Shown piece after piece: positions 24,702 to 48,859 of a stretch of 64,000 nt of DNA; the first letter of the stretch is position 1; every line of letters begins with the position of its first letter. A program made the translations under genes and the position numbers. The notes below the pieces were generated by a model. The model had not been told where the DNA came from and ran no database searches. It worked only from the letters and a program-made list of their open reading frames with translations. Source of the DNA: Candidatus Eiseniibacteriota bacterium (GTDB lineage: Bacteria; Eisenbacteria; RBG-16-71-46; CAVPCR01); contig CAWGMA010000003.1 of the NCBI GenBank assembly GCA_963823555.1, positions 384,001 through 448,000 on the forward strand. Direction: 5' to 3'.

Positions 24702-25322
24702 ATGGCCGCGGATTCTGGGATCGCACCCAGCGCGGACTCGAACGGGGCCGCCGGGGTCACCGGCGGTGGGGCGTTGCTGCGCCCCGATGACATCCTTCGC
24801 CCCGCCGGCCCCGACGAGCGCTGGACCCTCCTCTACACGCGCTCCCGTTGCGAGAAGATCCTCGGTCGGGCCTGCGCCCGGCTCGGCATTCGCCATTATC
24901 TTCCGCTCCAGCCGCACTCGACCTTCACCGGACGGCGCCGTGTCTACGCGCTGCCGCTCTTTCCGAGCTATCTCTTCGCCTGCCTCGATGAACACGCGCG
25001 TCTCGACGTGCTGCAGACGAACGTCGTCGTGCATGTCTTCCGCGTCGACCGGCCGGATGTGATGCTCGATGAGCTGCGGCAGATCCGTCAGGCGCTCGCG
25101 GCAGGAGCAGAGCTGACGGTGGGTCCGGAGCTCGGGCGCGGCGATCTCGTGCGTGTCGTGCGCGGCCCGCTCGCCGGTCTCGAGGGATACGTGCTCATGC
25201 GGCGGCGGCGGGCCGGGTGCCCGCGCCTCGTGCTCAATGTCTCGATCCTCGGGCAATCGGCCGCGACCGAGATCGATCCGTTCGATGTGATTCGCGTCGC
25301 CGAGGGCGCGCGGGCCGCCTGA
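24702..25322 (+). CDS. specialised NusG paralog (RfaH/UpxY-like antiterminator)
   Basis: WTLLYTRSRCEK, PLFPSYLF NGN motif, KOW motif GDLVRVVRGPLAGLEG. Confidence 0.85.
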   Translation: MAADSGIAPSADSNGAAGVTGGGALLRPDDILRPAGPDERWTLLYTRSRCEKILGRACARLGIRHYLPLQPHSTFTGRRRVYALPLFPSYLFACLDEHARLDVLQTNVVVHVFRVDRPDVMLDELRQIRQALAAGAELTVGPELGRGDLVRVVRGPLAGLEGYVLMRRRRAGCPRLVLNVSILGQSAATEIDPFDVIRVAEGARAA

Positions 25323-26850
25323 GGAAGTGGAAATCGCCTGATGGAGAAGCCGCGGGCGTGAAGCGCCGCCCGCCCCGACCGTGAGTCCGTCCGGTCCTCC
25401 ATCCGGCCCGGTCCCCGGTAGCGGGCAGGTTCGGCCTGCCGGTGAAGGGGACGGAGTCCGCCCGGGGAGCGAGCGCTGGTCGATCGGTGGAGGCGGGCGC
25501 CGCGAGGGCCACCTCGGCGGATGGACGCAGGCGAACGACGCCGGCCGAGGTTTCGCCGAGACGAACGCGCACCGGGTCCGCGAGGGGATCGATGAACACG
25601 CGCCACAACCAGGCGCCGCGACGGCTCGGGTGGTTCAGGCGACGCTCGGCTTCGGCGACGGGGATCCCGAGGAGGCTGAGGTAGGGGCCGAGCGCCTCGC
25701 GATCCGGGATCTCGAGGATCTCCTCGACCGTGATCATGAGTTCCGCGGTGAGCGGTGGCGCGCCCTGGGGAGCGGTTGCGGTGGGCATGAGCAGGAAGTG
25801 ACGGGCGACGGGCATCGGTCGGGGAGCCGTGGCGATGAGGCCGCCCTTCCTGAGGAGCAGCCCCTCGCCGCGCGCACGGAGGGCCGCAATCGCCTCGGGA
25901 ATCTCGCGTAAGGCGTAGGTGACAAGGAGTCTCGGGCCGACGGGCTGGCCGGAAGGAGCGAGCGTGGGCGGGCTCGATGCGGGAGGCAGCATCGTGAGCG
26001 GGCTCGTCGCGAGCTCCGCTTGCGGCTTCGCGAGGTGCGTGTAGCGCGTGGTGGTGTTGACGCTCGTGTGACCGAGCAGCGCCTGGATGACACGGAGATT
26101 GGTGCCGGCCTCGAGGAGGTGGGTGGCGAAGCTGTGACGGAGGGTGTGTGGCGTGGCCCGGCCTTCGAGCCTGGCCTTGACGACCGCCGTCGTGAACGCG
26201 CGCTGCGCCGCCCGCTCGGTCAGGTGGCCGCGACGATGCGGGCGATCCGCGCGTCGCGCTCCCAGGAACAGCCACTCGGAGCCCGGGCGCCCGGCGGAGA
26301 TCCTGTCGAGGAGGGGAAAGAGGCAGGCCGGGAGCAGCGAGAAGCGATCCTTCCTGCCCTTCCCCTGGCGGACTCGGATCTGGCCGCGATCGGTGCTGAG
26401 ATCCGCGATGCGAAGACGAACCGCCTCACCGATCCGAAGTCCCGAAGCGTACATGATGCCGAAGAAGAGGCGGTAACGTGGATCCTCGAATGCGGCGAGC
26501 AGTCGGAGCACTTCATCCCTGGAGAGCACGTGCGGGGCGACACGCTTCTCGCGCATCGGAGGCAGGCTCCCTCCCAGTTCGCGGTTGAGCACCGAGCGAT
26601 AGGCGAAGCGAACCGCGTTCCGGGCGAGCCGCATCTTGCTGGAGCCGTCCTCGCTGGTGTTGGCCACGGCCAGCAGGTAGTCGCGGATGTCGTCCTCCGT
26701 CACATCCTCGGGCGCCTTGCCAAGCGAGCCGAGAAAACGGCGCAGTGAGCCGAGATAGGTCTTGATGGTCTTCCTGCTGAAGCGACGGAGGAGCATCTCG
26801 TCGCGGACCGCATCGAGGAAGGGTTGGAGTTCGGTCCTGGGCGCTCGCAC
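25234..26850 (-). CDS. integron-like tyrosine recombinase with C-terminal extension
   Basis: N-terminal SAM-like FSRKTIKTY; catalytic GLRIGE, GKGRKDR, HTLRHSFATHLLE, LLGH, TRYTH; divergent from the cassette array. Confidence 0.9.
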   Translation of the reverse strand: MRAPRTELQPFLDAVRDEMLLRRFSRKTIKTYLGSLRRFLGSLGKAPEDVTEDDIRDYLLAVANTSEDGSSKMRLARNAVRFAYRSVLNRELGGSLPPMREKRVAPHVLSRDEVLRLLAAFEDPRYRLFFGIMYASGLRIGEAVRLRIADLSTDRGQIRVRQGKGRKDRFSLLPACLFPLLDRISAGRPGSEWLFLGARRADRPHRRGHLTERAAQRAFTTAVVKARLEGRATPHTLRHSFATHLLEAGTNLRVIQALLGHTSVNTTTRYTHLAKPQAELATSPLTMLPPASSPPTLAPSGQPVGPRLLVTYALREIPEAIAALRARGEGLLLRKGGLIATAPRPMPVARHFLLMPTATAPQGAPPLTAELMITVEEILEIPDREALGPYLSLLGIPVAEAERRLNHPSRRGAWLWRVFIDPLADPVRVRLGETSAGVVRLRPSAEVALAAPASTDRPALAPRADSVPFTGRPNLPATGDRAGWRTGRTHGRGGRRFTPAASPSGDFHFLRRPARPRRRESHRTDRSRSRPIARGSRH

Positions 26851-27010
26851 GTTGGAGGCGGCGGAGCAAGCGGCGTGCCGGAAGGTGGCCCTTCCCTCCA
26901 GGCGGGGGCTGGCTTGCGAGTGGCGGGGATGGGAGTATCCTTGATAGGGGCGATTGGTTCACGGCCGGTCTCCCAGGCAACGCTGTTGCCGGTTCTGCAA
27001 CCTCCGTTCG

Positions 27011-27024
27011 CGAACCATGGTTCG
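27011..27024. promoter_or_regulatory. candidate LexA (SOS) box upstream of integrase
   Basis: perfect palindrome CGAAC-CATG-GTTCG matching GAAC-N4-GTTC. Confidence 0.55.
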
Positions 27025-27163
27025 TAGAGCCCGTTTCGGCAGCCCCTGGCAAAAGCGAACCGGCCGAAGCTTAGTGATTGGTTCGGAAGCGGTTGAGAGG
27101 AGTGGGCCGGACCTGCAGCAGTGCCCCAACAGTCGGCCTGAATGCCCTTCCTCAACCGACCTT

Positions 27164-27182
27164 CGCCAATGGGCAGTTAAGC
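27164..27182 (+). other. candidate attI site
   Basis: CGCCAAT-GGGCA-GTTAAGC; the first cassette starts at G27176 with no attC in front, unlike its other four copies. Confidence 0.75.
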
Positions 27183-27515
27183 GCAGCTACGGGTCTTCGT
27201 TGAGCGCCGTGCCATTGGGGCTTGGGAGAGGTTCCGGGCGCAGCGACGGGAGCTTCGTTGTGGCAAGAGAAGGGTCCATGAGTCCCGTTGCGAGGCTTGA
27301 TCGGGAGCGCTGCGAACGATCGCTCGCCGTCTGAAGCTCGTGCCGCCCGGGCTTGAGGCACGCGTTTTGGGCGGAGAGTGCGCTGGTGTAGCCAGCTCCC
27401 GCCGCTCGTGCTTCGGCGAGGAAGAAGTGGGGAGAGGTGTAACGGTAGGGGCGGAGTTCAGGAGAGCCGAGATTTCTGGGAGTTGTCGGGAGAGGGCGTC
27501 GTCGCTGCGCCTAAC
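27176..27515 (+). repeat. gene-less cassette copy 1
   Basis: 340 bp unit, near-identical to 28994, 29487 and 31841. Confidence 0.9.
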
Positions 27516-27666
27516 GCGCGGCTAGGCGGCTCCGCTCGCTGCGCTCGCTTCGCGCAACCCGGCGCTTTCCGTCACGGCGCTTGCCGTGACGGGCGCGCTG
27601 GAGTCGACCTTGCTGCGGCAAGCGCCGCGCCGGGCGCCGGGTTCGCCAGCCGCGGTATCGTTAAGC
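27509..27666 (+). repeat. attC-like site 1
   Basis: GCCTAAC...GGTATC-GTTAAGC, imperfect palindrome. Confidence 0.85.
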
Positions 27667-27912
27667 GCAGCTACGGGAGTCCCGTTGCGAGGCTTGATCG
27701 GGAGCGCTGCGAACGACCGCTCGCCGTCTGAAGCTCGTGCCGCCCGGGCTTGAGGCACGCGTTTTGGGCGGAGAGTGCGCTGGTGTAGCCAGCTCCCGCC
27801 GCTCGTGCTTCGGCGAGGAAGAAGTGGGGAGAGGTGTAACGGTAGGGGCGGAGTTCAGGAGAGCCGAGATTTCTGGGAGTTGTCGGGAGAGGGCGTCGTC
27901 GCTGCGCCTAAC
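27660..27912 (+). repeat. gene-less cassette copy 2 (87 bp internal deletion)
   Basis: 253 bp; CTACGG joined directly to GAGTCCCG. Confidence 0.88.
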
Positions 27913-28070
27913 GCGCGGCTAGGCGGCTCCGCTCACTCGCTGCGCTCGCATCGCTTCGCCCAACCCGGTCGTCCGTCACGGCGCTTGCGGCCGGGGCGGG
28001 GTTGAGGTTCACCTTGCTGCGGCAAGCGCCGCGCCGGGCGCCGGGTTCGCCAGCCGCGGTATCGTTTTGC
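27906..28070 (+). repeat. attC-like site 2
   Basis: GCCTAAC...GTTTTGC. Confidence 0.85.
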
Positions 28071-28154
28071 GGCAAGCGAGAGCAGACCATTCGCGAACAC
28101 TAAGAAGCACTACCAGCCAGCAGCGCAGCCTGCTGGGACCAGGGAGCACAGTCT

Positions 28155-28819
28155 GTGAGTAACTTGCCCGCACGTCGCGTGGCATCCTTGCCAGCCGCGA
28201 TCCTGCTCGTTGCGGTTGCCGGCTCTGCCCCAGCGCAGGACATTGTCATTGAGGCCGAGTTCTACCCGACCTGGGCCTGCTTCCCGACCAATGGCGCAGA
28301 GTCTCACCGTCCGATTCTCTGGCATCCTCGCTTACATCCACCGACCCCTTGCCGAAGTGCTCGCAGCATTCCCTGATGAGTGGGAGCGGGAAACCACGCA
28401 TCCGTGTTGGTCTGGATGTTCGACCGCCCGGTTTGCGGCTTCGCTTCGCCAACAGCACCTCCATATATCCCCCTTACATTCCAGGATACGTCGAGCGTCT
28501 GACGTTCGAGCCGCAACCTCCGGTCACAGTCGATTCCGTTCATGTGAATTGGTACCCCTTGCCAGGACAGGAGTCCCCTCCTTTCACGTTCTTTCCACCT
28601 TCATGCATGTTCGTCCTCGACGCTGATTCACAAGTCCTAGTCAATGCCGACGCCGTCATCAACTTGGTCGGAGTATACGCCTCTCTTGGCGGATACCATT
28701 GCTGTTTGGGGCTCGGAGGTGGGAATCTCCTGACGTTGCTCTCCATGACGAAGGCGTCACCATGCCTAATCGCAGTCGAGGAAGCCACGTGGGGGGCAAT
28801 CAAGGCCACATGGAAATGA
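28155..28819 (+). pseudogene. secreted protein with TWGxIK tail, frameshifted (cassette 3)
   Basis: Signal peptide in ORF 28155-28376; tail VEEATWGAIKATWK in overlapping ORF ending 28819. Confidence 0.6.
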
Positions 28820-28840
28820 TGATGTTGCCATTCGCTTGCC

Positions 28841-29000
28841 GCATAACACGCGGCCTGGCGGCTCCGCTCGCTGCGCTCGCTCCGCTGCAACCCGGCGCCT
28901 TCCGTCACGGCGCTTGCCGTGACGGGCAGCGCTGGAGGTTCCTCTTGCTGCGGCAAGCGCCGTGCCGGCGCCGGGTTCGCCAGCCGCGGTATCGTTAAGC
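28841..29000 (+). repeat. attC-like site 3
   Basis: GCATAAC...GTTAAGC. Confidence 0.85.
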
Positions 29001-29333
29001 GCAGCTACGGGTCTTCGTTGAGCGCCGTGCCATTGGGGCTTGGGAGAGGTTCCGGGCGCAGCGACGGGAGCTTCGTTGTGGCAAGAGAAGGGTCCATGAG
29101 TCCCGTTGCGAGGCTTGATCGGGAGCGCTGCGAACGATCGCTCGCCGTCTGAAGCTCGTGCCGCCCGGGCTTGAGGCACGCGTTTTGGGCGGAGAGTGCG
29201 CTGGTGTAGCCAGCTCCCGCCGCTCGTGCTTCGGCGAGGAAGAAGTGGGGAGAGGTGTAACGGTAGGGGCGGAGTACAGGAGAGCCGAGATTTCTGGGAG
29301 TTGTCGGGAGAGGGCGTCGTCGCTGCGCCTAAC
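28994..29333 (+). repeat. gene-less cassette copy 3
   Basis: 340 bp repeat unit. Confidence 0.9.
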
Positions 29334-29493
29334 GCGCGGCTAGGCGGCTCCGCTCACTCGCTGCGCTCGCATCGCTTCGCCCAACCCGGTCGTCCGTCAC
29401 GGCGCTTGCGGCCGGAGGCGGGGTTGAGGTTCGACCTTTCTGCGGCAAGCGCCGCGCCGGGCGCCGGGTTCGCCAGCCGCGGTATCGTTAAGC
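29327..29493 (+). repeat. attC-like site 4
   Basis: GCCTAAC...GTTAAGC. Confidence 0.85.
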
Positions 29494-29826
29494 GCAGCTA
29501 CGGGTCTTCGTTGAGCGCCGTGCCATTGGGGCTTGGGAGAGGTTCCGGGCGCAGCGACGGGAGCTTCGTTGTGGCAAGAGAAGGGTCCATGAGTCCCGTT
29601 GCGAGGCTTGATCGGGAGCGCTGCGAACGACCGCTCGCCGTCTGAAGCTCGTGCCGCCCGGGCTTGAGGCACGCGTTTTGGGCGGAGAGTGCGCTGGTGT
29701 AGCCAGCTCCCGCCGCTCGTGCTTCGGCGAGGAAGAAGTGGGGAGAGGTGTAACGGTAGGGGCGGAGTTCAGGAGAGCCGAGATTTCTGGGAGTTGTCGG
29801 GAGAGGGCGTCGTCGCTGCGCCTAAC
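29487..29826 (+). repeat. gene-less cassette copy 4
   Basis: 340 bp repeat unit. Confidence 0.9.
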
Positions 29827-29986
29827 GCGCGGCTAGGCGGCTCCGCTCACTCGCTGCGCTCGCATCGCTTCGCCCAACCCGGTCGTCCGTCACGGCGCTT
29901 GCGGCCGGAGGCGGGGTTGAGGTTCGACCTTTCTGCGGCAAGCGCCGCGCCGGGCGCCGGGTTCGCCAGCCGCGGTATCGTTATGT
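29820..29986 (+). repeat. attC-like site 5
   Basis: GCCTAAC...GTTATGT. Confidence 0.85.
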
Positions 29987-30024
29987 GCCCTGCACACCTG
30001 ACCATTGGGAGAAAGGGACTCGAC

Positions 30025-30732
30025 ATGAGGCCTCGCGCTAGCGCGCTCATCATCTCTATTCCTCTGCTTGTCTCGTTGGCGCTCTTCGTTCCCTCCTGCG
30101 GGGACGATGATGGCCCCGCGGCTCCCGATCTCGCCAGCGCTTACCTCATTCAAGCAACCCTCGTGCTCAGCACGGAAACTGCCACCGTCGCCGTCTCCCG
30201 CCTCGATGCCAGCGACCCTTCGGCTGCCACTGCTGTAGTCCTGCTCGATGGTCACGGCATGCAGCACTCGGCAAACAACACACCAGACCAGGCAACCTTC
30301 CTGTCGCAGGTTCCCACGAATCCCGGCCACGCCTACGCCTTTTCCGTCACCGTCGACGGCGTCAGCGCCTCAGGCACCCTCGCTACTCCTGATCAGCCAT
30401 GCACGGTTGCCATCACGCAACCGCCGCCTGGGAATCTGACGTTCTCGTCGGGCACCGATCTCGCTCTTCAATGGGAATACGTCGGCTCCGAACCAGGGGA
30501 GTTTGGCGTCTTTGGATCGAGTGTCGCCTTTCCCCCTCGCGTCTTCTCAGATACTCTACAGGCGAGTGCACGGTCGGCCGTTGTCGAGACATCGCAGTGG
30601 TCGCTCGCATCCCAGGTGTTCCTGCGAGTCACGGCCCGGACACGAGCGGAGATCTCCGGAGACCTTGCTGCCCCAACAAGCTCATCATTTGTTGACTTCG
30701 CTACATCGGAGGTCATTCTCACCCGTAGGTAG
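30025..30732 (+). CDS. putative lipoprotein (cassette 6)
   Basis: Hydrophobic leader ending VPSC-GDDD; fills the cassette. Confidence 0.75.
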   Translation: MRPRASALIISIPLLVSLALFVPSCGDDDGPAAPDLASAYLIQATLVLSTETATVAVSRLDASDPSAATAVVLLDGHGMQHSANNTPDQATFLSQVPTNPGHAYAFSVTVDGVSASGTLATPDQPCTVAITQPPPGNLTFSSGTDLALQWEYVGSEPGEFGVFGSSVAFPPRVFSDTLQASARSAVVETSQWSLASQVFLRVTARTRAEISGDLAAPTSSSFVDFATSEVILTRR

Positions 30733-30754
30733 CAGGTCCCCGCGAGTGCAGGGC

Positions 30755-30915
30755 ACATAACACGCGGCCTGGCGGCTCCGCTCGCTGCGCTCGCGTCGCC
30801 CAACCCGGCGCTTTCCGTCACGGCGCTTGCCGTGACGGGGCCGCGCTGGAGGTCCACTTTGCTGCGGCAAGCGCCGTGCCGGGCGCCGGGTTCGCCAGCC
30901 GCGGTATCGTTTTGC
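30755..30915 (+). repeat. attC-like site 6
   Basis: ACATAAC...GTTTTGC. Confidence 0.85.
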
Positions 30916-30984
30916 GACGGGCGCGTACGGACCTCCATCTTAGCGCATGCGGCTAACACTCCTGTCGCAAGGAGGTGAGATACC

Positions 30985-31659
30985 TTGATCTTTGGCAGTA
31001 ATCTTGGTCTTGCCGGCGTGGCGTTGCTGGCGCTTAGCCTCACCATGCGAGTTGCCGAGGCAGTTGACAACGAGCCACCCACCTGCGATCACGGCGGACC
31101 CTACGAGTGCATTCCCCAGCACGCTGTGGAGTTTGATGGCCGTGGATCCTACGACCCCGACGGTGTCATCGTGAGCTACGTCTGGTCGTTTGGTGATGGG
31201 CACACCGCCACCGGCGCGCTGGTCACGCACAGATACGAGGTCGTCGGCTCCTTCACCGTCGCGCTTCTCGTCACGGATAATGATGACAACTTCAGCGTCT
31301 GCGAGACCATTGCCCGCATCGTCGAACCGTGCCCTGGCAATTGCCCCCCGATCTGCGACGCTGGTGGCCCTTACCACGGCATAGCTGGTGTCCCGATTCA
31401 ATTCGATGGGTCGGGCTCGCTCCCCGTCATCGCTTGCATCCCGCTGGTCCAATTCGCATGGACATTTGGAGACGGGGCGACCGCCGTCGGCCCGCAACCG
31501 CTGCGCACTTACACGACGCCCGGCGACTTCAATATCACGCTCACGATCGTGGACTCTGACGGAGCCACCTCATCCTGTTCCTCCGTCGCAGTGGTTGCGG
31601 AACCCTCTGGAGTCGACCCCACCACATGGGGACGCATCAAGAACACAGTCCTGGAATGA
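30985..31659 (+). CDS. secreted tandem PKD domain protein with TWGxIK tail (cassette 7)
   Basis: FDGRGSYDPDG, WSFGDG and WTFGDG motifs; AAGGAGG RBS; VDPTTWGRIK. Confidence 0.85.
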   Translation: MIFGSNLGLAGVALLALSLTMRVAEAVDNEPPTCDHGGPYECIPQHAVEFDGRGSYDPDGVIVSYVWSFGDGHTATGALVTHRYEVVGSFTVALLVTDNDDNFSVCETIARIVEPCPGNCPPICDAGGPYHGIAGVPIQFDGSGSLPVIACIPLVQFAWTFGDGATAVGPQPLRTYTTPGDFNITLTIVDSDGATSSCSSVAVVAEPSGVDPTTWGRIKNTVLE

Positions 31660-31689
31660 CCTTCACGGCAGGACTCTCCCGTGTCCGTC

Positions 31690-31847
31690 GCAAAACACGC
31701 GGCCGGCGGCTCCGCTCGCTGCGCTCGCTTCGCCTAACCCGGCGCTTTCCGTCACGGCGCTTGCAGTGACGGGCCGCGCTGGAGTCCATCTTGCTGCGGC
31801 AAGCGCCGTGCCCGGCGCCGGGTTCGCCAGCCGCGGTATCGTTAAGC
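31690..31847 (+). repeat. attC-like site 7
   Basis: GCAAAAC...GTTAAGC. Confidence 0.85.
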
Positions 31848-32180
31848 GCAGCTACGGGTCTTCGTTGAGCGCCGTGCCATTGGGGCTTGGGAGAGGTTCC
31901 GGGCGCAGCGACGGGAGCTTCGTTGTGGCAAGAGAAGGGTCCATGAGTCCCGTTGCGAGGCTTGATCGGGAGCGCTGCGAACGACCGCTCGCCGTCTGAA
32001 GCTCGTGCCGCCCGGGCTTGAGGCACGCGTTTTGGGCGGAGAGTGCGCTGGTGTAGCCAGCTCCCGCCGCTCGTGCTTCGGCGAGGAAGAAGTGGGGAGA
32101 GGTGTAACGGTAGGGGCGGAGTTCAGGAGAGCCGAGATTTCTGGGAGTTGTCGGGAGAGGGCGTCGTCGCTGCGCCTAAC
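31841..32180 (+). repeat. gene-less cassette copy 5
   Basis: 340 bp repeat unit. Confidence 0.9.
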
Positions 32181-32341
32181 GCGCGGCTAGGCGGCTCCGC
32201 TCACTCGCTGCGCTCGCATCGCTTCGCCCAACCCGGCGCTTCCGTCACGGCGCTTGCGGCCGGGGGCGATGTTGAGGTTCGACCTTTCTGCGGCAAGCGC
32301 CGCGCCGGGCGCCGGGTTCGCCAGCCGCGGTATCGTTTGGC
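32174..32341 (+). repeat. attC-like site 8
   Basis: GCCTAAC...GTTTGGC. Confidence 0.85.
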
Positions 32342-32362
32342 GCCACGCTACATCTAGCTCAT

Positions 32363-33001
32363 ATGAGAGACTTCATGCAGCATCTTTGGATGTCCATGTG
32401 GGTCGCATGCTACCTTGCATGCGTCGTTGGCTGCCATCGGGACGATCACGAAGTGTCCGCCATCTCGTTGAGAATCGAGCGCCGCCTCGGACTCAAGTTG
32501 CCCTGCGAAATCCATAGCGCCCAAGAGTACGATGATGGGGGGTCAATTGGCGGGACAATCCTGGACGCTACCGGGCAACAACTCCAGTTCTGGTGGGATG
32601 GCGGCATGCGCCTTCGTCCTGAGGATGTTAGCCACTTAGGCGATCGATTCGGTACTACAGATCCCGTAACCTCAGGTCCACGTTTGGTGTACTTGGGCGC
32701 CCATCATCGAGAAGACCGCCAGGCGCGCGCACTTCTAGTTGGCAGCGCGGAGGAAAGTGCCTTCGTTGATGTGCTGCGTCTGGCTGTGTCGAAACACTTC
32801 CCATTAGCCACTCAGGACAGCATTGCGGCCATCTGGATGGACCACCGCCCACTTTCCGGCAGAACCGCTTTGGCAGATCATCTTTCCCGTTCAGAGACTC
32901 ATGAACTCGAAGCCATTCGCCTTGCGGTCCTTCTGAGAATGCAGCGTTCGGGCACCACAATCGATCCAATGTCGTGCCCGTCGGCGACGGTTCCCCAATG
33001 A
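32363..33001 (+). CDS. hypothetical protein, possible lipoprotein (cassette 9)
   Basis: ORF fills the cassette; VVGC lipobox-like motif. Confidence 0.65.
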   Translation: MRDFMQHLWMSMWVACYLACVVGCHRDDHEVSAISLRIERRLGLKLPCEIHSAQEYDDGGSIGGTILDATGQQLQFWWDGGMRLRPEDVSHLGDRFGTTDPVTSGPRLVYLGAHHREDRQARALLVGSAEESAFVDVLRLAVSKHFPLATQDSIAAIWMDHRPLSGRTALADHLSRSETHELEAIRLAVLLRMQRSGTTIDPMSCPSATVPQ

Positions 33002-33021
33002 TAGAACAAGTTACGCGTGGC

Positions 33022-33180: not shown

Positions 33181-33202
33181 GCCCGCCCGGGGAAGCACCT
33201 TG

Positions 33203-40063: not shown

Positions 40064-40099
40064 GAACCCCACGGGTCCCGAGCACATGAGGCTACGTCC

Positions 40100-40723
40100 A
40101 TGCTGTGTAGATGCCCTCTTCCGCACTTGCTCGTGGTCGCCATCGCTATTGGCTTCACCGCGGCCATGGACGCCGAGGCAGTGCCGACGATCGTGATGGA
40201 CGTGCAGGGTGAACTCGTCTTCTGCCCTGCAGTAGACCCCTGTGTCGCACCGAATCAGCCGCGGGTGAATATCCCGGCGATTGAGCAGTGGTTCTATGCC
40301 TACGTCTTCGCGCGCAACTACGACGATGTCGCCGCGATCCAGTGGGCCTTTGACTGGCCTCCGACCTTGGTCGTCGGCGGTGGCTTCTGGCTGTGCCCTC
40401 CCGGCTCCATCGGGATTCCCGAGCAGCCACCGTATGGTCCCGGCCCGATCGCCGGCAGCTGCGGTGCCATCTTCAATTGCGTCTCCGGCGGGGCTTCGAT
40501 GTTGATCGGGTGGGTTGGCGTGCGCCCCGGAACTGGATGCCTCGAGATCATTGAATCCGGGTTTCCAAATGGCACGCATATTGTCACATGCTCCGGGGCG
40601 ATCGTACCCGTCCCACCTGCCAACCGAGGCAAGATCTGCGTCGGTGAGGGCGGCATTGACGCCTGCAAGTCTCTGGTTCCTGTCACGCCAGCAACCTGGG
40701 GTGCAATCAAGAACACCTATTGA
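40100..40723 (+). CDS. secreted Cys-rich protein with TWGxIK tail (cassette 17)
   Basis: Signal peptide, ARNYDDVAAIQWAFDW, VTPATWGAIKNTY. Confidence 0.8.
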   Translation: MLCRCPLPHLLVVAIAIGFTAAMDAEAVPTIVMDVQGELVFCPAVDPCVAPNQPRVNIPAIEQWFYAYVFARNYDDVAAIQWAFDWPPTLVVGGGFWLCPPGSIGIPEQPPYGPGPIAGSCGAIFNCVSGGASMLIGWVGVRPGTGCLEIIESGFPNGTHIVTCSGAIVPVPPANRGKICVGEGGIDACKSLVPVTPATWGAIKNTY

Positions 40724-40759
40724 TCTGTCGTGAGAGCGCACTATGGTGGGGTGGGGTTC

Positions 40760-40917
40760 GGCTAACGCGTGGCCGGCGGCTCCGCTTGCTGCGCTCGCTA
40801 CGCCCAACCCGGCGCTTTCCGTCACGGCGCTTGCAGTGACGGGCCGCGCTGGAGGCTCCCTTGCTGCGGCAAGCGCCGCGCCGGGCGCCGGGTTCGCCAG
40901 CCGCGGTATCGTTAAGC
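40760..40917 (+). repeat. attC-like site 17
   Basis: GGCTAAC...GTTAAGC. Confidence 0.85.
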
Positions 40918-40958
40918 GCCCTACGCCATTGGTCTTAAGAAGAACCGGCCTGGAGTCC

Positions 40959-41441
40959 ATGAAGCCCCTTTGCCTTACGTTAGCCTTCGCACTCTGCCTC
41001 TGCACATTCCCAACCGCAGTCCCGGGGCAGATTCTCTCTGGCTTTCCCCTGCATGCGATTCAGCTCGGCGCGGGCGAGTGCGACATCACTGACCCCTGCG
41101 CCTTTGGCATCAGCACAACGGTTCTTCCTGGATTCCTCACGGTCATCTACATCTGGACTCGCAACACCGGTCCGATCGCTGGAATCCAAACCGCTTTCGA
41201 TTGGGACCCCGGCACCTGGACCCTCGCCTACAGCGAGTGGGACTGCCAGCAAGGCCAACTCACAACGCATGTTCCTTCGGGACCGGGGCCCGTTGATGGC
41301 ACCATCTCGACCGTGTTCGACTGCGCGACCTACGGTGCTAGCTCGTGGATCATCGGAAAGCTCTACATGATCCCCTCATCTGGCTGCTTGCGACAGGTTC
41401 AATCCGCCCTGGCCTTCGGGACCTGTGTTTGCTTGTCCTGA
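40959..41441 (+). CDS. secreted Cys-rich protein, same family as 40100; C-terminus probably frameshifted (cassette 18)
   Basis: AGIQTAFDW motif; homologous GTICV segment continues in another frame after ~41425. Confidence 0.65.
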   Translation: MKPLCLTLAFALCLCTFPTAVPGQILSGFPLHAIQLGAGECDITDPCAFGISTTVLPGFLTVIYIWTRNTGPIAGIQTAFDWDPGTWTLAYSEWDCQQGQLTTHVPSGPGPVDGTISTVFDCATYGASSWIIGKLYMIPSSGCLRQVQSALAFGTCVCLS

Positions 41442-41585
41442 GGGTGCATGGCCGATCTACCCAGAGGCCTGCGGTACCATTTGCGTCAACGAGCCTGGCA
41501 TGATCGCCTGCTGGCCTGGACGAGGAACCGGCGAGCGTGAGGGCCACGAGGCGCAGTACTGCCAGTGGTTTGCGTGCGTAGGGCG

Positions 41586-41745
41586 TCATAACACGCGGCC
41601 TGGCGGCTCCGCTCGCTGCGCTCGCTCCGCTGCAACCCGGCGCTTTCCGTCACGGCGCTTGCCGTGACGGGCTGCGCTGGAGTACCCCTTGCTGCGGCAA
41701 GCGCCGCGCCGGGCGCCGGGTTCGCCAGCCGCGGAGACGTCATAC
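41586..41745 (+). repeat. attC-like site 18
   Basis: TCATAAC...GGAGAC-GTCATAC (GTC core). Confidence 0.8.
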
Positions 41746-41773
41746 GCCCTTGGCCGTGGGTCGTAGGAGAAAG

Positions 41774-42190
41774 TCACGCTGGGCGATCACCGAGGTACTT
41801 GTCCGCAAACTCCCTCGGGCGCTGGACGCTTATCCCTCGATATCCGCTGACCTTTAAGAGATGCCTGTCGCCACTGATAACGCGCCTCGCTCGGCCGGCC
41901 ACGGCGCAGGCCAGAAACTTGTCGTCGGCCCTGTCTTCGCACACAGGCAGCGGGAGAGCTGGGGCGACAACGATCGTGGCCTTTGAGATGAGCAGGACCA
42001 GTATTGGCGTGACATCAACTCCAGGGAAACGCTGGGCAATCCTCTGCGCCGTGCCCCAGTACTCATCGACAATCTCTGGCGACACAACCACATCCAGCTC
42101 ATCGTCTCTCCACGCCAAGACGATCCGGTACGGTGCGCCACCGAAGAAGATCCCCGAAATCAGCACGTTGGTGTCGACCACGATCCTCAC
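41774..42190 (-). CDS. PIN domain toxin
   Basis: VVDTNVLISG, DDKFLACA, ISGDRHLL. Confidence 0.9.
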   Translation of the reverse strand: MRIVVDTNVLISGIFFGGAPYRIVLAWRDDELDVVVSPEIVDEYWGTAQRIAQRFPGVDVTPILVLLISKATIVVAPALPLPVCEDRADDKFLACAVAGRARRVISGDRHLLKVSGYRGISVQRPREFADKYLGDRPA

Positions 42191-42450
42191 TGCCGGCCTC
42201 GGGTCGCGGCTACCGCTCGCGTGATGTCCGAGCGCTTCACCTTTGCGCGGCGCGCGGCCTTGCGCGTCTCGGCCACCAAGTCATCAAACTCAGCGACCGA
42301 GGGCGGAGCGATGACCTTGAGGATTACGACATCCCCATTGCCGATCACGACGAACTGGGCGCCGGGCTGCAACCCGAGTCGTTTGCGGATATTCTCGGGA
42401 ATGACGACCTGTCCCTTGGCAGACATTTTGGTTGTAGCGAGCGTAGGCAT
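42187..42450 (-). CDS. AbrB/MazE family antitoxin
   Basis: KGQVVIPENIRKRLGL. Confidence 0.9.
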   Translation of the reverse strand: MPTLATTKMSAKGQVVIPENIRKRLGLQPGAQFVVIGNGDVVILKVIAPPSVAEFDDLVAETRKAARRAKVKRSDITRAVAATRGRQ

Positions 42451-42464
42451 CTGGTTCCTCCCCT

Positions 42465-42488
42465 GGTAGTCTTACCAGTAAGACTACC
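42465..42488. promoter_or_regulatory. operator of the AbrB/PIN operon
   Basis: perfect inverted repeat GGTAGTCTTAC-CA-GTAAGACTACC just upstream of the antitoxin. Confidence 0.65.
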
Positions 42489-42712
42489 CCAAGCACCGAG
42501 GCCCCGCAAGGGGCGGTTTTCTGTGACCGGAGTGCGGGTGCCCGTGAGCAAAGGAACCCGATGTGCTACGGGTTGGCCAAGGGCGCATAACGCGCGGCTG
42601 TCAACGAACATTGAAAACTGGTCCAAGGTGAACGGCGAAAAGTGGACCACCCCTGCTGAGGATCCGGGCTGATCACGGTAAGTTCTGACCTCCTTTCTGG
42701 TTCCGAGTCTGC

Positions 42713-43168
42713 TCAGGCCGGGGCGAGAGCAGGGGCCTGGGTCGTGGCCAGGGTGCGTTCCCGCAGCCGGTAGCTGTGTCCCTTGATCGATAACACATGG
42801 CTGTGATGGAGTCGCCGATCGAGGATGGCGGTGGCGATGGCGTGATCGCCGAAGACCTCTGGCCACTCGGTCACGGACTTGTTCGAGGTGAGGATCACAC
42901 TCGAGCGTTCGTAGCGGTAGGCGACGACCTGGAAGAGGTAGTTGGCTTCGGCACGCGAGAGCGGTAGGTACCCGACCTCATCGAGCACCTTGATCCGCCG
43001 CTCCTCCCGCGCCGCGATCTCTTCTTCGAGCAGCTGGTCGAGGAAAGCCGCATACCCGAGCTCGCTGTCTTCAGCACTCTTGAGCGCCTCAGGCAGGGTG
43101 TCCTTGACGCGCCACAGCCCGAGTCGATCGAGTTGCGTGACCAGGCGATCGTAGGTGGGCTGGCTCAT
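42713..43168 (-). pseudogene. istB: IstB helper ATPase with internal in-frame deletion
   Basis: ERRIK joined directly to VLDEVGYL (Walker A missing); ILTSN, AILDR motifs. Confidence 0.85.
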
Positions 43169-44277
43169 CGCACACCTCCGAGGACGGAGACATACTCCGC
43201 GATCGGGCGCTGCTCGACCTCGGCCGCGGCCCAGGGCACCACCGAGAGCAGGTGGACGCGACGGGTGACCGGTCGGCGTTTCGCTGCCCGTTCCTGCAGC
43301 CGTTCGAACCGGGGGCGTCGCAGGGCAGCCACATGCTCCTCGATGATCGAGCGCTCACCCTTGGCCACCTGGCGGTGTTCGGCTACACGCTCGGCTTGCG
43401 AGAAGATCTCGATCGCATCGCCCAGCGGATCGATCTTGACGACCACGCGAGAGCCGACTAGATGATGCGGAACCGAGTAACGTCCGGCATGGAAGCTCAC
43501 GGTGCAATCGCTCAGCACCCGTCGGGTCTCCGGCAACCGTGGATCAAAGCTGATCTCCGGCAGCGCCAGAAGTTCCGGTCGCTCCCGTTCCAGACGCGCC
43601 CAGGGCACTTCGCCCGTGGTGCCGTGAACGCGTCCGTTGCGGGCCCGATCGAGCGCGGTCACGGCATCTTGCAGTGCGTACAGGCCCGGGTACTGCTCTT
43701 CGAGCAGGCCGGCATCCTCGATATCCCGGTAGCTCCGTTCGGTCTTCCCCTTCCGTTCGGGGTGATACGGCCAGGCCGGGTCCGGCTCGCAGCCATAGTG
43801 TCGACAGACGTCCAGGAAGAAGGGCTGGAGCTCGAGCTGCGGGCGCGGCCGCAAGACCGCCGCCTTCGTGTTGTCGAACAACACTCGCGCCGGCACACCC
43901 CCGGCTGCGATGAACGCCCAGCGCAACGCCGCCAGGAGGGCGGGCAGATTGATGCTGCGCACGACGAGTGTCCACTGTGCCCGCGACCACCCGAGCAGAA
44001 AGCGGAAGAAGTGCACGCTGGTCTCGGGCTCGGCGCGGAGCAGACCACGTGCCGGTCCTTTCCAGTCGAACTGGCCTTCGAGTCCGGGCGCGGTCTCGAA
44101 CCGCACGCAGGCGCGCCGACGAGCGCGCTCCAGGCGCCGCCGCTCGCGCACCCAACACTTCACCCGTTCGTAATGCCCCTGGTAGCCCTCGCGCACAATC
44201 AGCGCATGGAGCACCGTCGCCGGTGCCGCCGGCCGTGCCGCCAGCAACTCTTCGAGACGACCTACGAACGGTTCGAG
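43165..44277 (-). pseudogene. istA: IstA transposase, 5'-truncated
   Basis: RFETAPG..QFDW, FDNTK, KGKTER, VHGTTGE, YSVP; N-terminal HTH absent. Confidence 0.88.
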
Positions 44278-44467
44278 CGCCGGCCGCCGGGTTCGCCAGC
44301 CGCGGTATCGTTATGTGCACGGCCTCGGATCGCCTTGGTCTAGCTCTCAGCGTCGCCATGGAGCACCCTCGATGGCGATCTCGCGACGCCCCTTGTCCGG
44401 GCCATCGTGGCCGTCGAACGCACGTCCCCGGCTGGCATGATCGTGGCTGCGGTGCTACTCTCGTCCC

Positions 44468-44737
44468 ATGCCCGAACTGTCGCGGTTCTTTGGGATCATC
44501 GTCCGAATGTTCGCTGAGGCTGGAGAACCACATCACGCGGCTCATTTCCATGCCTACTACCAGGACCATATCGGCGTCTTCGGCATTGACCCCGTCGAGT
44601 TGCTCGCTGGCTCTTTCCCTCGCCGCCAGCAGCGGCTGGTTGAGGCATGGGCGGAGCTCCATCAGCAGGAGCTTCTTCAGGACTGGGAGCGCCTGCAGGC
44701 AGGCCAGCGGCCTTTGCCCATCGATCCACTTCGCTAA
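44468..44737 (+). CDS. DUF4160 domain protein (putative toxin)
   Basis: MPELSRFFGI, HFHAYY, WAELHQQEL; TG-n-TACTCT just upstream. Confidence 0.85.
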   Translation: MPELSRFFGIIVRMFAEAGEPHHAAHFHAYYQDHIGVFGIDPVELLAGSFPRRQQRLVEAWAELHQQELLQDWERLQAGQRPLPIDPLR

Positions 44738-44746
44738 CGAGGCCAT

Positions 44747-45043
44747 ATGAAGCACCCAATCGTCCGCGTCGAGTCCTTCGAGATCGTTGGGCCTTATACC
44801 CTGCGTGTCGCCTTCGACGATGGTTCTGCACAGGTCATTGATTTCCGCCCGGTCCTCTTCGGCGAGCTATTTGGACCGCTTCAGGACCTCACGCTGTTCA
44901 ATCGTGTTGGCATCGACCCCGAGGTTAGAACCCTCGTTTGGCCCAACGGCGCCGACTTCGACCCTGCTACACTTCACGGATGGCCGCAGCACGCTCGCGC
45001 CATGGAGCAACTGGCTCGTCGCTGGGAGCGCGGCGCTGCTTGA
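44747..45043 (+). CDS. DUF2442 domain protein (putative antitoxin)
   Basis: LRVAFDDG, WPNGADFDPATL. Confidence 0.85.
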   Translation: MKHPIVRVESFEIVGPYTLRVAFDDGSAQVIDFRPVLFGELFGPLQDLTLFNRVGIDPEVRTLVWPNGADFDPATLHGWPQHARAMEQLARRWERGAA

Positions 45044-46059
<1,016 letters not shown>

Positions 46060-46117
46060 CCATCGCAGGCTGAGGCCTTCTCGTCCTGGGCTTCATCGCA
46101 GTTTCCCTTCGCTCCTC

Positions 46118-46277
46118 GCATAACACGCGGCCTGGCGGCTCCGCTCGCTGCGCTCGCTTCGCTGCAACCCGGCGCTCTCCGTCACGGCGCTTGCCGTGAC
46201 GGGCCGCGCTGGAGGCCCCCTTGCTGCGGCAAGCGCCGCGCCGGCCGCTGGGTTCTCCAGCCGCGGAAACGTTATGC
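46118..46277 (+). repeat. attC-like site 21
   Basis: GCATAAC...GGAAAC-GTTATGC. Confidence 0.85.
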
Positions 46278-46311
46278 GCGCAGCAAGGACGCAGTCCGGA
46301 GGTGCATCCCA

Positions 46312-47691
46312 ATGAAAGCAGCGATCCCCCTCGTGGCTCTTGCCCTGCTCGTGGGTGCCAACCCCCTGAGCGCGGCGACCCTCGTCGTCCCTGACCAGTA
46401 CGCATCGATCGGTGCCGCCATCCTCGCGGCCACCAATGGCGACACAGTCTTCGTCCGTGCTGGGACCTATGTCGAGAATCTGAACTTCATGGGCAAGGGC
46501 ATCTCCCTGGTCAGCGAGGACGGACCGGTGGCCACCATCATTGATGGATCGAACCCATCGCACCCCGACTCGGGGAGCGTGCTCTTCATTCCGCCCGCGC
46601 CGACGCCAATCCTCGTGAGAGGTTTCACCATCACTGGGGGCAGCGGAACGCTCGATCAGAACATGTTCTCCAGAAGAGCCGGTGGCATCTATCTCCTGAC
46701 GGCTGGGGCTATCAAGGACAGCTGGATCACCGAGAATCACGCCGCTAGCATCACTGGAGTTGCGGGCGGGATCGAAGTGGCCGCCCAAGGCGTGACACTC
46801 CAGGGGAACCGCATCTACTCGAACACCGCGGGCTTGTCGTCCAGCGGTTCACGAGGCGGCGGGATCCTCATCAACGGATCCGACACAATCATCGAAGACA
46901 ATGTGGTGTTTGCCAATCAGGCTCTGGGGGAGCCAGGCACGGGTGGTGGTTGCTACGCGGACGGTATCACCACATTCCTTCATAACGTCTTTGCGTGCAA
47001 CCGAGGGTCGAACCGCGGAACTGCCATCAACGGCGCGTATCTCATCGAGAACTGCACGATTGTCGGAAACAGCGGCCTCCATCCCGCTTTCGATTCGGCG
47101 CTCGGCCGAGTCCAGACGGTCCGTCGTTCGAGCATCACCAGCAACGTGGGCCCGGGGATCGATGCTTGCAACCATCTCACGACTCCCTGCAACAACTTCT
47201 TCGATAACATTGGCGACGATCCAGCCTGCTATGACGCTGGCAACGGGAACATATCGGTCGAGCCTCTCTATGAGGAAACCCAGTGCGGCAGCACGTTCTG
47301 CCTCTTGCCGGAGTCACCTCTCCTGCCTGAGAACTCGCCACCTGGGTGCGGGCTCATCGGGGCGAGCGAGCAGTGCGTGTCAACGGCAATCGACGCGCCG
47401 ACAAGTCCCGATTACGCCTCTGGGCCGCTGGTTGCGCGACCGAATCCGTTCAACCCCGCGACTACCATTGCGTTCGTGCTCCCGGGTCGGCGCAGCCTCA
47501 CACTCGCCGTGTATGACACGTCCGGGCGTGCGGTGCGGATTCTCTTTGACGGTACCCTGCCGTCCGGGCCGCACGAGATCGTCTGGGACGGCCGTGACTC
47601 TCGCGGCACCTTGGTCGAGTCCGGGGCGTACATCGCAGTGCTGCAATCACCGGAGGCACGCTGGAGCCAGAAGCTGCTTCTCGTGAAATGA
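46312..47691 (+). CDS. secreted beta-helix protein with FlgD-Ig/T9SS-like C-terminal domain (cassette 22)
   Basis: VPDQYASIGAAI; PNPFNPATTI..YDTSGRAVR..WDGRD..SGAY..KLLLVK. Confidence 0.85.
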   Translation: MKAAIPLVALALLVGANPLSAATLVVPDQYASIGAAILAATNGDTVFVRAGTYVENLNFMGKGISLVSEDGPVATIIDGSNPSHPDSGSVLFIPPAPTPILVRGFTITGGSGTLDQNMFSRRAGGIYLLTAGAIKDSWITENHAASITGVAGGIEVAAQGVTLQGNRIYSNTAGLSSSGSRGGGILINGSDTIIEDNVVFANQALGEPGTGGGCYADGITTFLHNVFACNRGSNRGTAINGAYLIENCTIVGNSGLHPAFDSALGRVQTVRRSSITSNVGPGIDACNHLTTPCNNFFDNIGDDPACYDAGNGNISVEPLYEETQCGSTFCLLPESPLLPENSPPGCGLIGASEQCVSTAIDAPTSPDYASGPLVARPNPFNPATTIAFVLPGRRSLTLAVYDTSGRAVRILFDGTLPSGPHEIVWDGRDSRGTLVESGAYIAVLQSPEARWSQKLLLVK

Positions 47692-47725
47692 GGGCGAGTG
47701 TCCAGTAGCCTATCTATGGCGGCGC

Positions 47726-47884
47726 GCACAACCCGCGTCCTGGTGGCTCCGCTCGCTGCGCTCGCTGCGTCCAACCCGGCGCTCTCCGTCACGGCGCTTG
47801 CCGTGACGGGCCGCGCTGGAGTCCTCCTTGCTGCGGCAAGCGCCGCGCCGGGCGCCGGGTTCGCCAGCCGCGGTATCGTTAAGC
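47726..47884 (+). repeat. attC-like site 22
   Basis: GCACAAC...GTTAAGC. Confidence 0.8.
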
Positions 47885-48069
47885 GCACCTCGCTCCCGGG
47901 GTCACGCGTGCAGGAGGGGTCCGAGCCCCCTTTCACTGACAGCTTGGTGGAGGGGACCCGTTTGCGTACACTGGAGTCGGGCTCGGAGACGCCCGAGCCC
48001 CCTATGGCGGGCGAGCGGTTGGAACTGATGGCTGCCACTCCTGGCACCGGTGGGCCGCGGAGGTAGAAG

Positions 48070-48327
48070 CTGCGACGGCGAGAGTGGCCCCTCTGGTGTG
48101 CCTGGGAACTCGAACTGAGCCCGCACCTGGTCAAGCGCATGATTGATCGCCGGTTCTCCGAGATCGATCTCAGGACGATGCTTGAGCGCGCATCAGGCTA
48201 TGAGAGAGACGTGGTTGTCGGGCGGTGGGTCATCGAAACGCGGTTACGGAGACGGCGATGGCAAGTCATCGTCGAGCCTGATATTGCTACGGAGAGGCTC
48301 GTTGTCGTCACGGCCTATCCACTCTGA
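48070..48327 (+). CDS. DUF4258-like putative toxin
   Basis: LSPHLVKRMIDR, VVVTAYP; start is either CTG 48070 (GGAGG 6 nt upstream) or ATG 48139. Confidence 0.7.
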   Translation: MRRREWPLWCAWELELSPHLVKRMIDRRFSEIDLRTMLERASGYERDVVVGRWVIETRLRRRRWQVIVEPDIATERLVVVTAYPL

Positions 48328-48338
48328 GAAAGAGCGCA

Positions 48339-48608
48339 ATGCATGAGCCATACTTGGAAGTGACCTTTCGTCACGGTCGCCCGCTGGCGGCCTATCTGTA
48401 CCTGCCACGACGACCGGGGCAACGCAGCTTTCGAAGTCGACCTGTGGACCCCGGCATGGTTATCGACTTCAGCCGCGGTGGTCACCCCATCGGCATCGAG
48501 ATAACCGCACCAGATAGAGTCTCGCTTGCGGCAATCAACCGCGTCCTCCGTTCCCTTGGCTGCGCCCCCGTCAAGAAGGCCGATCTTGCGCCGCTGCGCG
48601 CTGCCTAG
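48339..48608 (+). CDS. DUF2283-like putative antitoxin
   Basis: AAYLYL, VIDF..GHPIGIEI. Confidence 0.75.
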   Translation: MHEPYLEVTFRHGRPLAAYLYLPRRPGQRSFRSRPVDPGMVIDFSRGGHPIGIEITAPDRVSLAAINRVLRSLGCAPVKKADLAPLRAA

Positions 48609-48692
48609 GCAGGTGTCACACCGAGTCCGGTCCGGCAAGCGAATACGACGACGGTGACAGCCAACCTCGAATATGGCCGCCATGCGAGGTGC

Positions 48693-48859
48693 GCTTAACG
48701 CGCGGCTAGGCGGCTCCGCTCGCTCGCTGCGCTCGCATCGCTTCGCCCAACCCGGTCGTCCGTCACGGCGCTTGCGGTCGGGGGCGGGGTTGAGGTTCGA
48801 TCTTGCTGCGGCAAGCGCCGTGCCGGGCGCCGGGTTCGCCAGCCGCGGTATCGTCATAC
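48693..48859 (+). repeat. attC-like site 23 (last)
   Basis: GCTTAAC...GGTATC-GTCATAC. Confidence 0.82.

Follow-up and report, generated by a model that had tools for sequence, protein, structure and literature searches.

The 64-kb stretch of DNA analysed here, which we refer to as the window, is part of the 4.6-Mb genome G000 of a Candidatus Eiseniibacteriota bacterium, and coordinates given without a contig name are window positions. It carries a tyrosine recombinase gene (25234..26850, minus strand, 538 aa) that is transcribed away from a 21.7-kb array of cassettes on the plus strand (27177..48853). Both the divergent arrangement and the size of the array agree with a first-pass annotation, which had described an integron-like cassette system at this place. 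The gene encodes a recombinase core (25984-26850, minus strand) and a DUF1802-like C-terminal domain (about 25441-25953, minus strand), and it converges with a gene for a NusG paralog (NGN domain; 24567..25322, plus strand; Pfam PF02357, 31.4 bits). Because its last ~30 codons overlap the NusG-like gene, the exact 3' end of the recombinase gene is uncertain. Upstream of the gene, an attI-like region (26851..27178, plus strand) ends at the junction GGGCAG↓TTAAGC (the arrow marks the crossover), the GTT of which ends at 27178, 327 nt from the recombinase start codon; this is the entry point that had been proposed before. The earlier count of 23 cassettes has to be corrected, since one attI and 22 attC-like sites delimit 22 cassettes. 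They are 404-2571 nt long and all lie in a single orientation, and the GC content of the array (0.61-0.65) is lower than that of its flanks (0.66-0.72).

The attC-like sites were delimited from AAC to GTT on the basis of matches to a 24-nt motif from the 3' arm of the repeat, site boundaries and predicted folds. All on the plus strand, sites 1 to 17 are located at 27513..27662, 27910..28066, 28845..28996, 29331..29489, 29824..29982, 30759..30911, 31694..31843, 32178..32337, 33026..33176, 33777..33933, 34917..35073, 35813..35964, 36714..36880 (site 13, a variant with compensatory stem changes), 38302..38452, 39149..39306, 40764..40913 and 41590..41741, and sites 19 to 22 at 45137..45296, 46122..46273, 47730..47880 and 48697..48855. 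Site 18 is interrupted by a remnant of an IS21-family insertion sequence (42601..44274, minus strand), which leaves a 5' stub at 42581..42600 and a 3' part at 44275..44312. The remnant holds fragments of IstB (42713-43168; PF01695, 142.6 bits) and IstA (43165-44247; PF22483, 56.6 bits), and it is decayed: IstA lacks its N-terminal part, and the site has lost about 100 nt. The other 21 of the 22 sites are complete, measure 150-167 nt and end in RYYYAAC and GTTRRRY, which bears out the AAC...GTT hairpin repeats reported at first, except that the terminal core is GTC in place of GTT at site 17 and at site 22, the last of the array.

The 24-nt motif occurs 22 times on the plus strand of the whole window and never on the minus strand, always between 27639 and 48855. 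A scan of the entire G000 genome with up to three mismatches returned 20 forward and 0 reverse matches, every one of them inside the window array, and the reversed pattern that served as a control gave 0 forward and 0 reverse matches. These distributions bear on the idea that the repeats are a dispersed palindromic element, akin to a repetitive extragenic palindromic (REP) sequence or a miniature inverted-repeat transposable element (MITE), which spread between genes and has nothing to do with the recombinase. Long, GC-rich, imperfect palindromes located between genes do fit such an element. However, all 22 sites lie in one orientation and in one block with none elsewhere in the 4.6 Mb, the flanks of a unit pair with its own site across the entire cassette, and the block begins at a fixed junction beside the recombinase gene in three genomes, and we regard this explanation as scarcely credible.

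The pairing across the cassette was assessed by comparing the 12 nt after the GTT at each cassette start with the reverse complement of the 12 nt before the AAC of its own attC, and the two agreed at a mean of 9.9 of 12 positions. The corresponding means were 6.3 of 12 for the preceding attC, where high values came from duplicate cassettes, and 5.9 of 12 for unrelated cassettes, which represent the background. The beginning of a cassette is thus complementary to the outer arm of the site at its own end, which locates the point of strand exchange at G↓TT, and this own-site complementarity is the footprint of that exchange, both halves making one site on the circular cassette. A G↓TT crossover leaves such terminal inverted repeats in any integron cassette and they are a hallmark of integrons; the private terminal inverted repeats of the first-pass annotation are therefore present, but as a normal footprint and not as the non-canonical part for which they had been taken. 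Cassettes 15 and 16 (38451-38470 and 39305-39324) have identical first 12 bases and match their own attC at 7 and 4 of 12 positions, respectively, which suggests that an earlier exchange or deletion broke the rule there. As a means of counting, a generic detector of cassettes (GTT followed by a word u, and the reverse complement of u followed by AAC) was dropped. It returned 27-28 matches in both the real sequence and its control, the reversed sequence, which preserves inverted repeats, and it then served only to read individual junctions.

Minimum-free-energy folding of the 21 complete sites as DNA, on both strands, predicted energies from -46.9 to -66.3 kcal/mol and an outer architecture that was alike in most of them. 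On the top strand, the predicted hairpin begins with an R box of 4 bp (TAAC/GTTA) and continues with an asymmetric spacer (1 x 5 or 0 x 4) to which the 5' arm contributes 0-1 nt and the 3' arm 4-5 nt, with a 4-nt bulge of variable sequence (GTAT, GAAA, GAGA, AAAT) and constant length. The spacer is followed by an L box of 6-7 bp (CGCGGC(T)/(A)GCCGCG), beyond which the 5' arm has a net surplus of one base; a 4-bp stem and a branched inner part come next. When 48 sites were aligned, of which the window supplied 20, genome G001 of the same genus 24 and the metagenome contig L049 four, 92.0% of the cells were paired, as against 32-47% with slid partners, and six pairs covaried, with 17 cells changed on both sides, for example from GC to CG six times at columns 22/174. 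The long sites are thus imperfect palindromes framed by RYYYAAC and GTTRRRY, and their predicted folds depart from the classical attC fold, in which a central spacer of roughly 5 x 5 stays unpaired and one arm bears two or three extrahelical bases. The earlier statement that the sites are longer and spaced differently therefore holds.

The recombinase itself consists of an N-terminal SAM_4 domain (PF13495) and a catalytic domain (PF00589), followed by the DUF1802-like domain. Its best NCBIfam family was the integron integrase TIGR02249, with 208.9 bits against a cut-off of 265, and the match falls into two stretches that skip profile positions 175-215; the protein does not, then, score as an ordinary IntI. 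The Xer models also stayed below their cut-offs (XerA 171.8 vs 220, XerC 144.5 vs 335.15 and XerD 138 vs 329.6 bits), and in a search of the PDB XerA was matched in one continuous stretch with 117.5 bits. At the I2 insertion characteristic of IntI, residues 182-205 of the recombinase face chain residues 178-237 of VchIntIA (2a3v), and an alignment with three canonical IntIs (IntI1, that of G000 itself and one from a cyanobacterium) shows that the window protein lacks about 37 residues, the ALxxKYP stretch among them; the first-pass annotation had likewise claimed that the insertion is missing. The catalytic residues R139, K164, H235, R238, H261 and Y270 are all present. The ratio of nonsynonymous to synonymous substitution rates (dN/dS) of the core was 0.16-0.31 against two relatives, values that are approximate because dS is near saturation, and it indicates that the core is under purifying selection. 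Judged by these comparisons, the recombinase is nearest to IntI, yet not an IntI.

The C-terminal domain is conserved in the same-genus homolog from G001, in which Pfam DUF1802 reached 28.2 bits, whereas the window protein, at 18.1 bits, stayed below the cut-off of 25. Clusters of DUF1802 were also the top three look-alikes by language model (0.83-0.84), which we treat as a lead only, and on L049 a DUF1802-like domain follows the recombinase in a different frame. An exhaustive profile search found only four relatives of the domain among 1.84 billion representatives. Its AlphaFold2 model, built from six sequences, was too weak for a fold search (mean predicted local distance difference test score 52.0, predicted template modelling score 0.39). 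A search of the literature on DUF1802 turned up nothing relevant.

Quick maximum-likelihood trees (LG+C20 by posterior mean site frequency, with support from the Shimodaira-Hasegawa-like approximate likelihood ratio test) placed the canonical IntIs in one clade (100) and the three proteins of the window type in another (100). Two Bacteroidales-type proteins made up a third clade (100), and the recombinase of metagenome contig L062 with two other proteins a fourth (97). The branching order of the four clades was not resolved in the group that unites them (84), which belongs to a well-supported set of 19 rows (96). Both the Xer genes of G000 and most of the Xer-like proteins of about 40% identity lie apart from these clades. 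That the window clade is sister to IntI is a lead, not a result. Nesting of the window clade within canonical IntIs of the resident type was rejected by the approximately unbiased (AU) test (log-likelihood difference 41.9, p 0.008), which means that the enzyme is not a recent I2-deletion derivative of the neighbouring integron. The suggestion of a distinct integron-type lineage that IntI models would miss is thus upheld, in that the protein lies below every curated NCBIfam cut-off and, in these trees, in a clade of its own outside a monophyletic IntI.

Close homologs of the recombinase are rare, with only two among 5.8 billion clustered proteins, P0003 (70%) and P0004 (67%), and the next at 47%. 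P0004 is the recombinase of G001, where its gene lies 207 nt from the end of a contig; the contig stops at ..CGCCTAATGGCAGT, which corresponds to the attI-like junction (..TGGCAGT). Another contig of G001, C4, holds 31 matches to the long attC between 356 and 39291, and two more are found on its contig C1 (1378045-1379026, minus strand, about 165 kb from the I2-less recombinase of G001). P0003 corresponds to L049 (69% identity), on which five long sites, 77-81% identical to those of the window, lie upstream of the divergent gene, the junction reads GACCAG↓TTATACGG, and the first cassette follows the own-site rule. A three-way MAFFT alignment of the attI regions was poor, as their lengths differ, and these junctions were read by eye and with the own-site rule. 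The module of NusG paralog, recombinase, attI-like junction and long attC sites is therefore present in 3 of 3 loci of the clade (window, G001 and L049), so that the search of the closest homologs for adjacent arrays, proposed with the first-pass annotation, recovered the same kind of array each time. The DUF1802-like domain likewise occurs in all three.

All 5 of the Eisenbacteria integrase loci examined, I2-less and canonical, have a NusG paralog beside the integrase gene, including those of the canonical IntI of both G000 and G001. Outside the window, the paralogs lie at 16293-17075 of L017, 70-599 of L020, 7804-8322 of L049 and 2901-3410 of L134, and the two copies in G000 are 56% identical. 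The paralog might help transcription through the hairpin-rich arrays; a literature search on integrons and NusG found nothing on point. The attI-like region contains five copies of GTTCG/CGAAC in its 327 nt (26950-27100), against 1.1-1.6 per kb outside the array, and this is a possible accessory binding motif. Two or three copies were also seen in the attI regions of the relatives L020 and L049. The stretch GGGTTCGCC is found in the 3' arm of every attC. Between 26700 and 28200 one terminator-like site was predicted, which is chance level. At gathering thresholds, Rfam matched nothing in the window but a tRNA-Met gene with a CAT anticodon (63432-63507, minus strand), which was also the only ARAGORN match.

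Pfam-supported genes were found in 11 of the 22 cassettes, in 10 of them on the array strand. The sole Pfam-supported content on the minus strand is the toxin-antitoxin pair of cassette 18 (41774..42450), composed of PIN_3 (41774-42190) and a MazE/AbrB-type antitoxin (42187-42450). The remaining cargo comprises Fic/DOC, DUF4258, DUF4160 with DUF2442, DUF433 with DUF5615, DUF6883, DUF2283, PKD, NHL and two beta-helix proteins, and six cassettes hold open reading frames (ORFs) with no Pfam match. By its domain content, this cargo looks like that of sedentary chromosomal integrons. A single ORF-less unit of about 400-494 nt makes up five cassettes (1, 2, 4, 5 and 8; 27177-28064, 28995-29980 and 31842-32335). 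It contains only an 18-codon ORF, Rfam did not match it, and the arrays of G001 and L049 showed no copy of at least 250 nt. Three of the copies are 100% identical over 300 nt, and such identical duplicates point to recent events. One contig of sequencing run X2 joins 41691 to 29440 via 43 shared attC bases (four runs cover parts of the array with short contigs), but this counts as a hint only, because assemblers can create joins across repeats. No RNA dataset was listed among the sequencing runs with this sequence.

The arrays of G000 and G001 have only about five cassettes in common, three of them 84-93% and two 66-73% identical at the nucleotide level, and their order is different. For comparison, the recombinase gene is 70% and the NusG-like gene 67% identical between the two genomes. 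Such turnover fits exchange with a common pool of cassettes, as far as the sequences can tell, without proving which enzyme would be responsible. It also bears on the possibility that the array is a fossil, in which a once active recombinase lost I2 and with it its function, and the cassettes are now fixed. One attC has been destroyed by the IS21 remnant, the last two residual cores are GTC instead of GTT, and deletion of I2 kills IntI1, according to the sections of PMC7790495 consulted here, all of which would suit a dead system. Yet the absence of I2 is common to three lineages that are 67-70% identical, the catalytic residues are kept under a dN/dS of 0.16-0.31, and the AU test (p 0.008) argues against nesting among the resident-type canonical IntIs. 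Together with the changed content and order of the same-genus arrays and the identical duplicate cassettes, this renders a fossil quite improbable.

A different question is raised by the canonical integron that G000 also possesses. Its IntI is encoded on contig C3 (15024-16235, minus strand), about 395 kb from the array, scores 459-463 bits with TIGR02249 (462.9) and is 53.9% identical to IntI1 over its full length; its close relatives are annotated as integron integrases. In the surrounding locus L017 (G000 C3 8500-17100), the NusG paralog (16293-17075) is located directly upstream of IntI on the same strand, and the short classical attCs (about 8567, 9586, 12430-12566 and 13520-13645) are found beyond the 3' end of intI, so that the canonical integrase points toward its own cassettes. 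These short sites are predicted to fold classically: the 5 x 5 spacer is unpaired, and 6 bp separate two single-base bulges. G001 likewise has a canonical IntI (467.1 bits), in this case at a distance of 54 kb.

It is therefore conceivable that the array is worked in trans by the canonical IntI, as proposed for attC clusters without a nearby integrase, while the I2-less enzyme performs local resolution, regulation or nothing. An IntI of 462.9 or 467.1 bits is at hand in both genomes, the long sites retain the RYYYAAC/GTTRRRY cores and the G↓TT crossover, and I2 is reported to be necessary for the activity of IntI1 (PMC7790495, in the parts consulted). Set against this, the attI-like junction and the start of the array adjoin the I2-less gene in 3 of 3 loci, whereas the distance to the canonical gene varies from about 395 kb in G000 to 54 kb in G001, and the canonical IntI has neighbouring attCs of its own with a different fold. 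Arrays of the rAID-1 type, described below, show that I2-less recombinases stand beside cassette arrays elsewhere, too. It is a weak argument that none of the other 29 genomes in the class that possess a canonical IntI has long attCs. More weight attaches to the fixed junction next to the I2-less gene and to the agreement of site type with enzyme type within one genome, and on balance we consider action in trans unlikely.

The genomes just mentioned come from a survey of 61 genomes of the class, of which 31 have a canonical IntI above the cut-off. Long attCs were detected in 2 of 61 and a close I2-less homolog also in 2 of 61, and these were the same two genomes.

Self-BLAST of 66 fetched loci of relatives (at least 3 kb each) flagged seven, of which L049, L062, L105 and L125 proved to be real arrays on inspection and L106 by junction reading. 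L061 was rejected as an array, being a tandem repeat instead, L069 showed one two-copy repeat family, and L045 was flagged for a repeat as well. The distance from box I to box II is 91-97 residues in L049, L062, L105, L106 and L125, which means that none of them has I2. On L062, a metagenome contig with 60% GC, the I2-less gene (about 5052-5885) has attC-like repeats of 130-210 nt on both sides, as if it were inside the array (1393-8896), and this array, like those of L105, L106 and L125, follows the cassette logic seen in the window. The loci L105 (1766-11660), L106 (10855-12112) and L125 (6598-12792) are low-GC contigs, and their recombinase has thousands of close relatives, the few source-named ones being from Bacteroides, Paraprevotella and 'Bacteroidales'. 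In these three, recombinase gene and array run in one direction, the stop codon is followed after 45-65 nt by a conserved attI-like junction (..GTATAAC↓GTTAT..), and the sites are short hairpins of 45-52 nt and several sequence types within one frame, TAAC...ATTA. This frame has a C.A mismatch at the position where classical sites pair C with G. The own-site rule holds in these arrays as well (in L125, 6.4 of 9 vs 3.8).

From their architecture and the Bacteroidales names we infer, without claiming proof, that L105, L106 and L125 are rAID-1 clusters. In the portions of the original description that were consulted, rAID-1 of Bacteroidales is an XerD-like tyrosine recombinase with an array of short genes and repeats 'reminiscent of integrons', defined by a recombinase at least 44% identical to the B. 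fragilis reference and at least two co-directional downstream genes of at most 41% GC, and its cargo consists of orphan immunity genes of the type VI secretion system (10.1101/471110). Phylogeny and crossover logic link these clusters to integrons. We did not find this link in the text of the two rAID papers, although the motif figures of the original rAID paper may already show some of the site features, and the words excision, hairpin, attC, circular and cassette are all absent from the 2025 rAID preprint. Neither the window system nor, outside rAID, an I2-less integrase with attC-type arrays was described in any paper that our literature search retrieved.

Cumulatively, our findings suggest that the window holds a chromosomal cassette array of integron design which is probably serviced by the adjacent, divergently transcribed, I2-less relative of IntI with its DUF1802-like domain. 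Its mode of action would be that of IntI: the enzyme would bind to attI and to attC-like sites in folded or cruciform form, and cassettes would be released through exchange between two attC sites and inserted at attI.

Several points weigh against this interpretation. All evidence on activity is derived from sequence, and the number of recombination events observed is zero. The predicted folds are those of naked single strands, and the trees are quick ones in which long branches meet and for which the careful search is incomplete. A promoter scan of 26700-28200 found no sigma-70-like site, near attI or elsewhere in that interval. Each of the two genomes with the system also has a canonical IntI that looks intact, and since the canonical cores RYYYAAC/GTTRRRY are kept in the long sites, the canonical enzyme could act on them. 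The co-occurrence across the class amounts to approximately a single event, because G000 and G001 belong to one genus, and it is weakened further by the fact that attC sequences of sedentary integrons are lineage-specific. Finally, I2 has been described as necessary for cassette capture, with its deletion abolishing the activity of IntI1 (PMC7790495, as far as consulted).

The last of these points is also what makes the system of interest. In integron biology, the I2 insertion is regarded as what lets the integrase handle folded attC, and here an array with every sequence hallmark of integron cassettes has an I2-less partner, with the classical integron of the same genome as an internal control. 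I2 is described as being found in no other protein, and the origin of I2 and attC as a chicken-and-egg problem (PMC4792948 and PMC7790495, in the sections consulted), and this paradox, as stated by Escudero et al. 2016, asks for an 'intermediary form'. A more far-reaching possibility, which we advance tentatively and do not regard as probable, is that integron-type capture is independent of I2 and that the window harbours a living I2-less sister lineage running its own long-hairpin array beside a canonical integron; taken with rAID-1 and L062, hairpin arrays would then have existed before, or independently of, I2. If this were true, the I2-less lineage would supply the intermediary form. If the enzyme is active on the long sites, single-strand or hairpin cassette recombination would be achievable in another way, one organism would provide two enzymes and two site types with which to test the origin of integrons directly, and genome surveys that require the I2 signature would undercount integron-like systems.

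Among the closest known systems is the classical integron, which includes sedentary chromosomal integrons such as those of Vibrio and Xanthomonas. The recombinase gene is divergent from an array of one orientation, and an attI-like junction adjoins it at the head of the array, at sequence level. The sites are imperfect palindromes with RYYYAAC/GTTRRRY ends and a G↓TT crossover, and most cassettes hold one or two small genes in the direction of the array, many of them toxin-antitoxin pairs or DUF proteins; some cassettes lack an ORF or are duplicates. SAM_4 and catalytic domains are arranged in the recombinase as in IntI, and IntI is its best-scoring model. The differences are the absence of about 37 residues of the I2 region, including ALxxKYP, and a score below the family cut-off; sites of 150-167 nt, where attC usually measures 57-141 nt; a predicted fold with an asymmetric 1 x 5 spacer, one net extra base instead of two extrahelical bases, and a branched inner part; and the extra DUF1802-like C-terminal domain. 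A NusG paralog stands alongside the window recombinase, but also alongside the canonical IntI here.

Clusters of attC sites without a nearby integron integrase form a category of their own in IntegronFinder (CALIN), and if the attC model finds the long sites, a standard pipeline would probably assign that label to the window array, because the neighbouring recombinase lacks the IntI-specific region. Unlike a CALIN, the array has a conserved syntenic recombinase and an attI-like junction. XerC, XerD and XerA share the fold family and the lack of I2, but the window recombinase scores below their curated cut-offs, G000 has separate Xer-like genes that root far away in the tree, and the target here is a hairpin cassette array and not a dif site.

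With rAID-1 the window system shares an I2-less recombinase next to a repeat-separated array; in the Bacteroidales-type loci, too, cassette flanks pair with their own site and the junction is fixed, and in the tree these recombinases belong to the unresolved group that also includes IntI and the window clade. However, the two recombinases (window and L125) are only 35% identical and belong to separate clades, the rAID-1 gene is co-directional with its array whereas the window gene is divergent, the sites measure 45-52 nt as against 150-167 nt, and rAID-1 has by definition at most 41% GC, compared with 61-65% in the window array. Orphan immunity genes there contrast with toxin-antitoxin pairs, PKD, NHL, beta-helix and DUF proteins here, at the level of Pfam, and neither the DUF1802-like domain nor the NusG paralog was found in the loci L105, L106 and L125. 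On the strength of orientation, GC content, sites that are three times longer, 35% identity, cargo, DUF1802-like domain and NusG paralog, the window system is not rAID-1; by every sequence criterion tested it works like an integron, except for its enzyme, which lacks I2 and stays below the curated cut-off, and for the classical fold of its sites.

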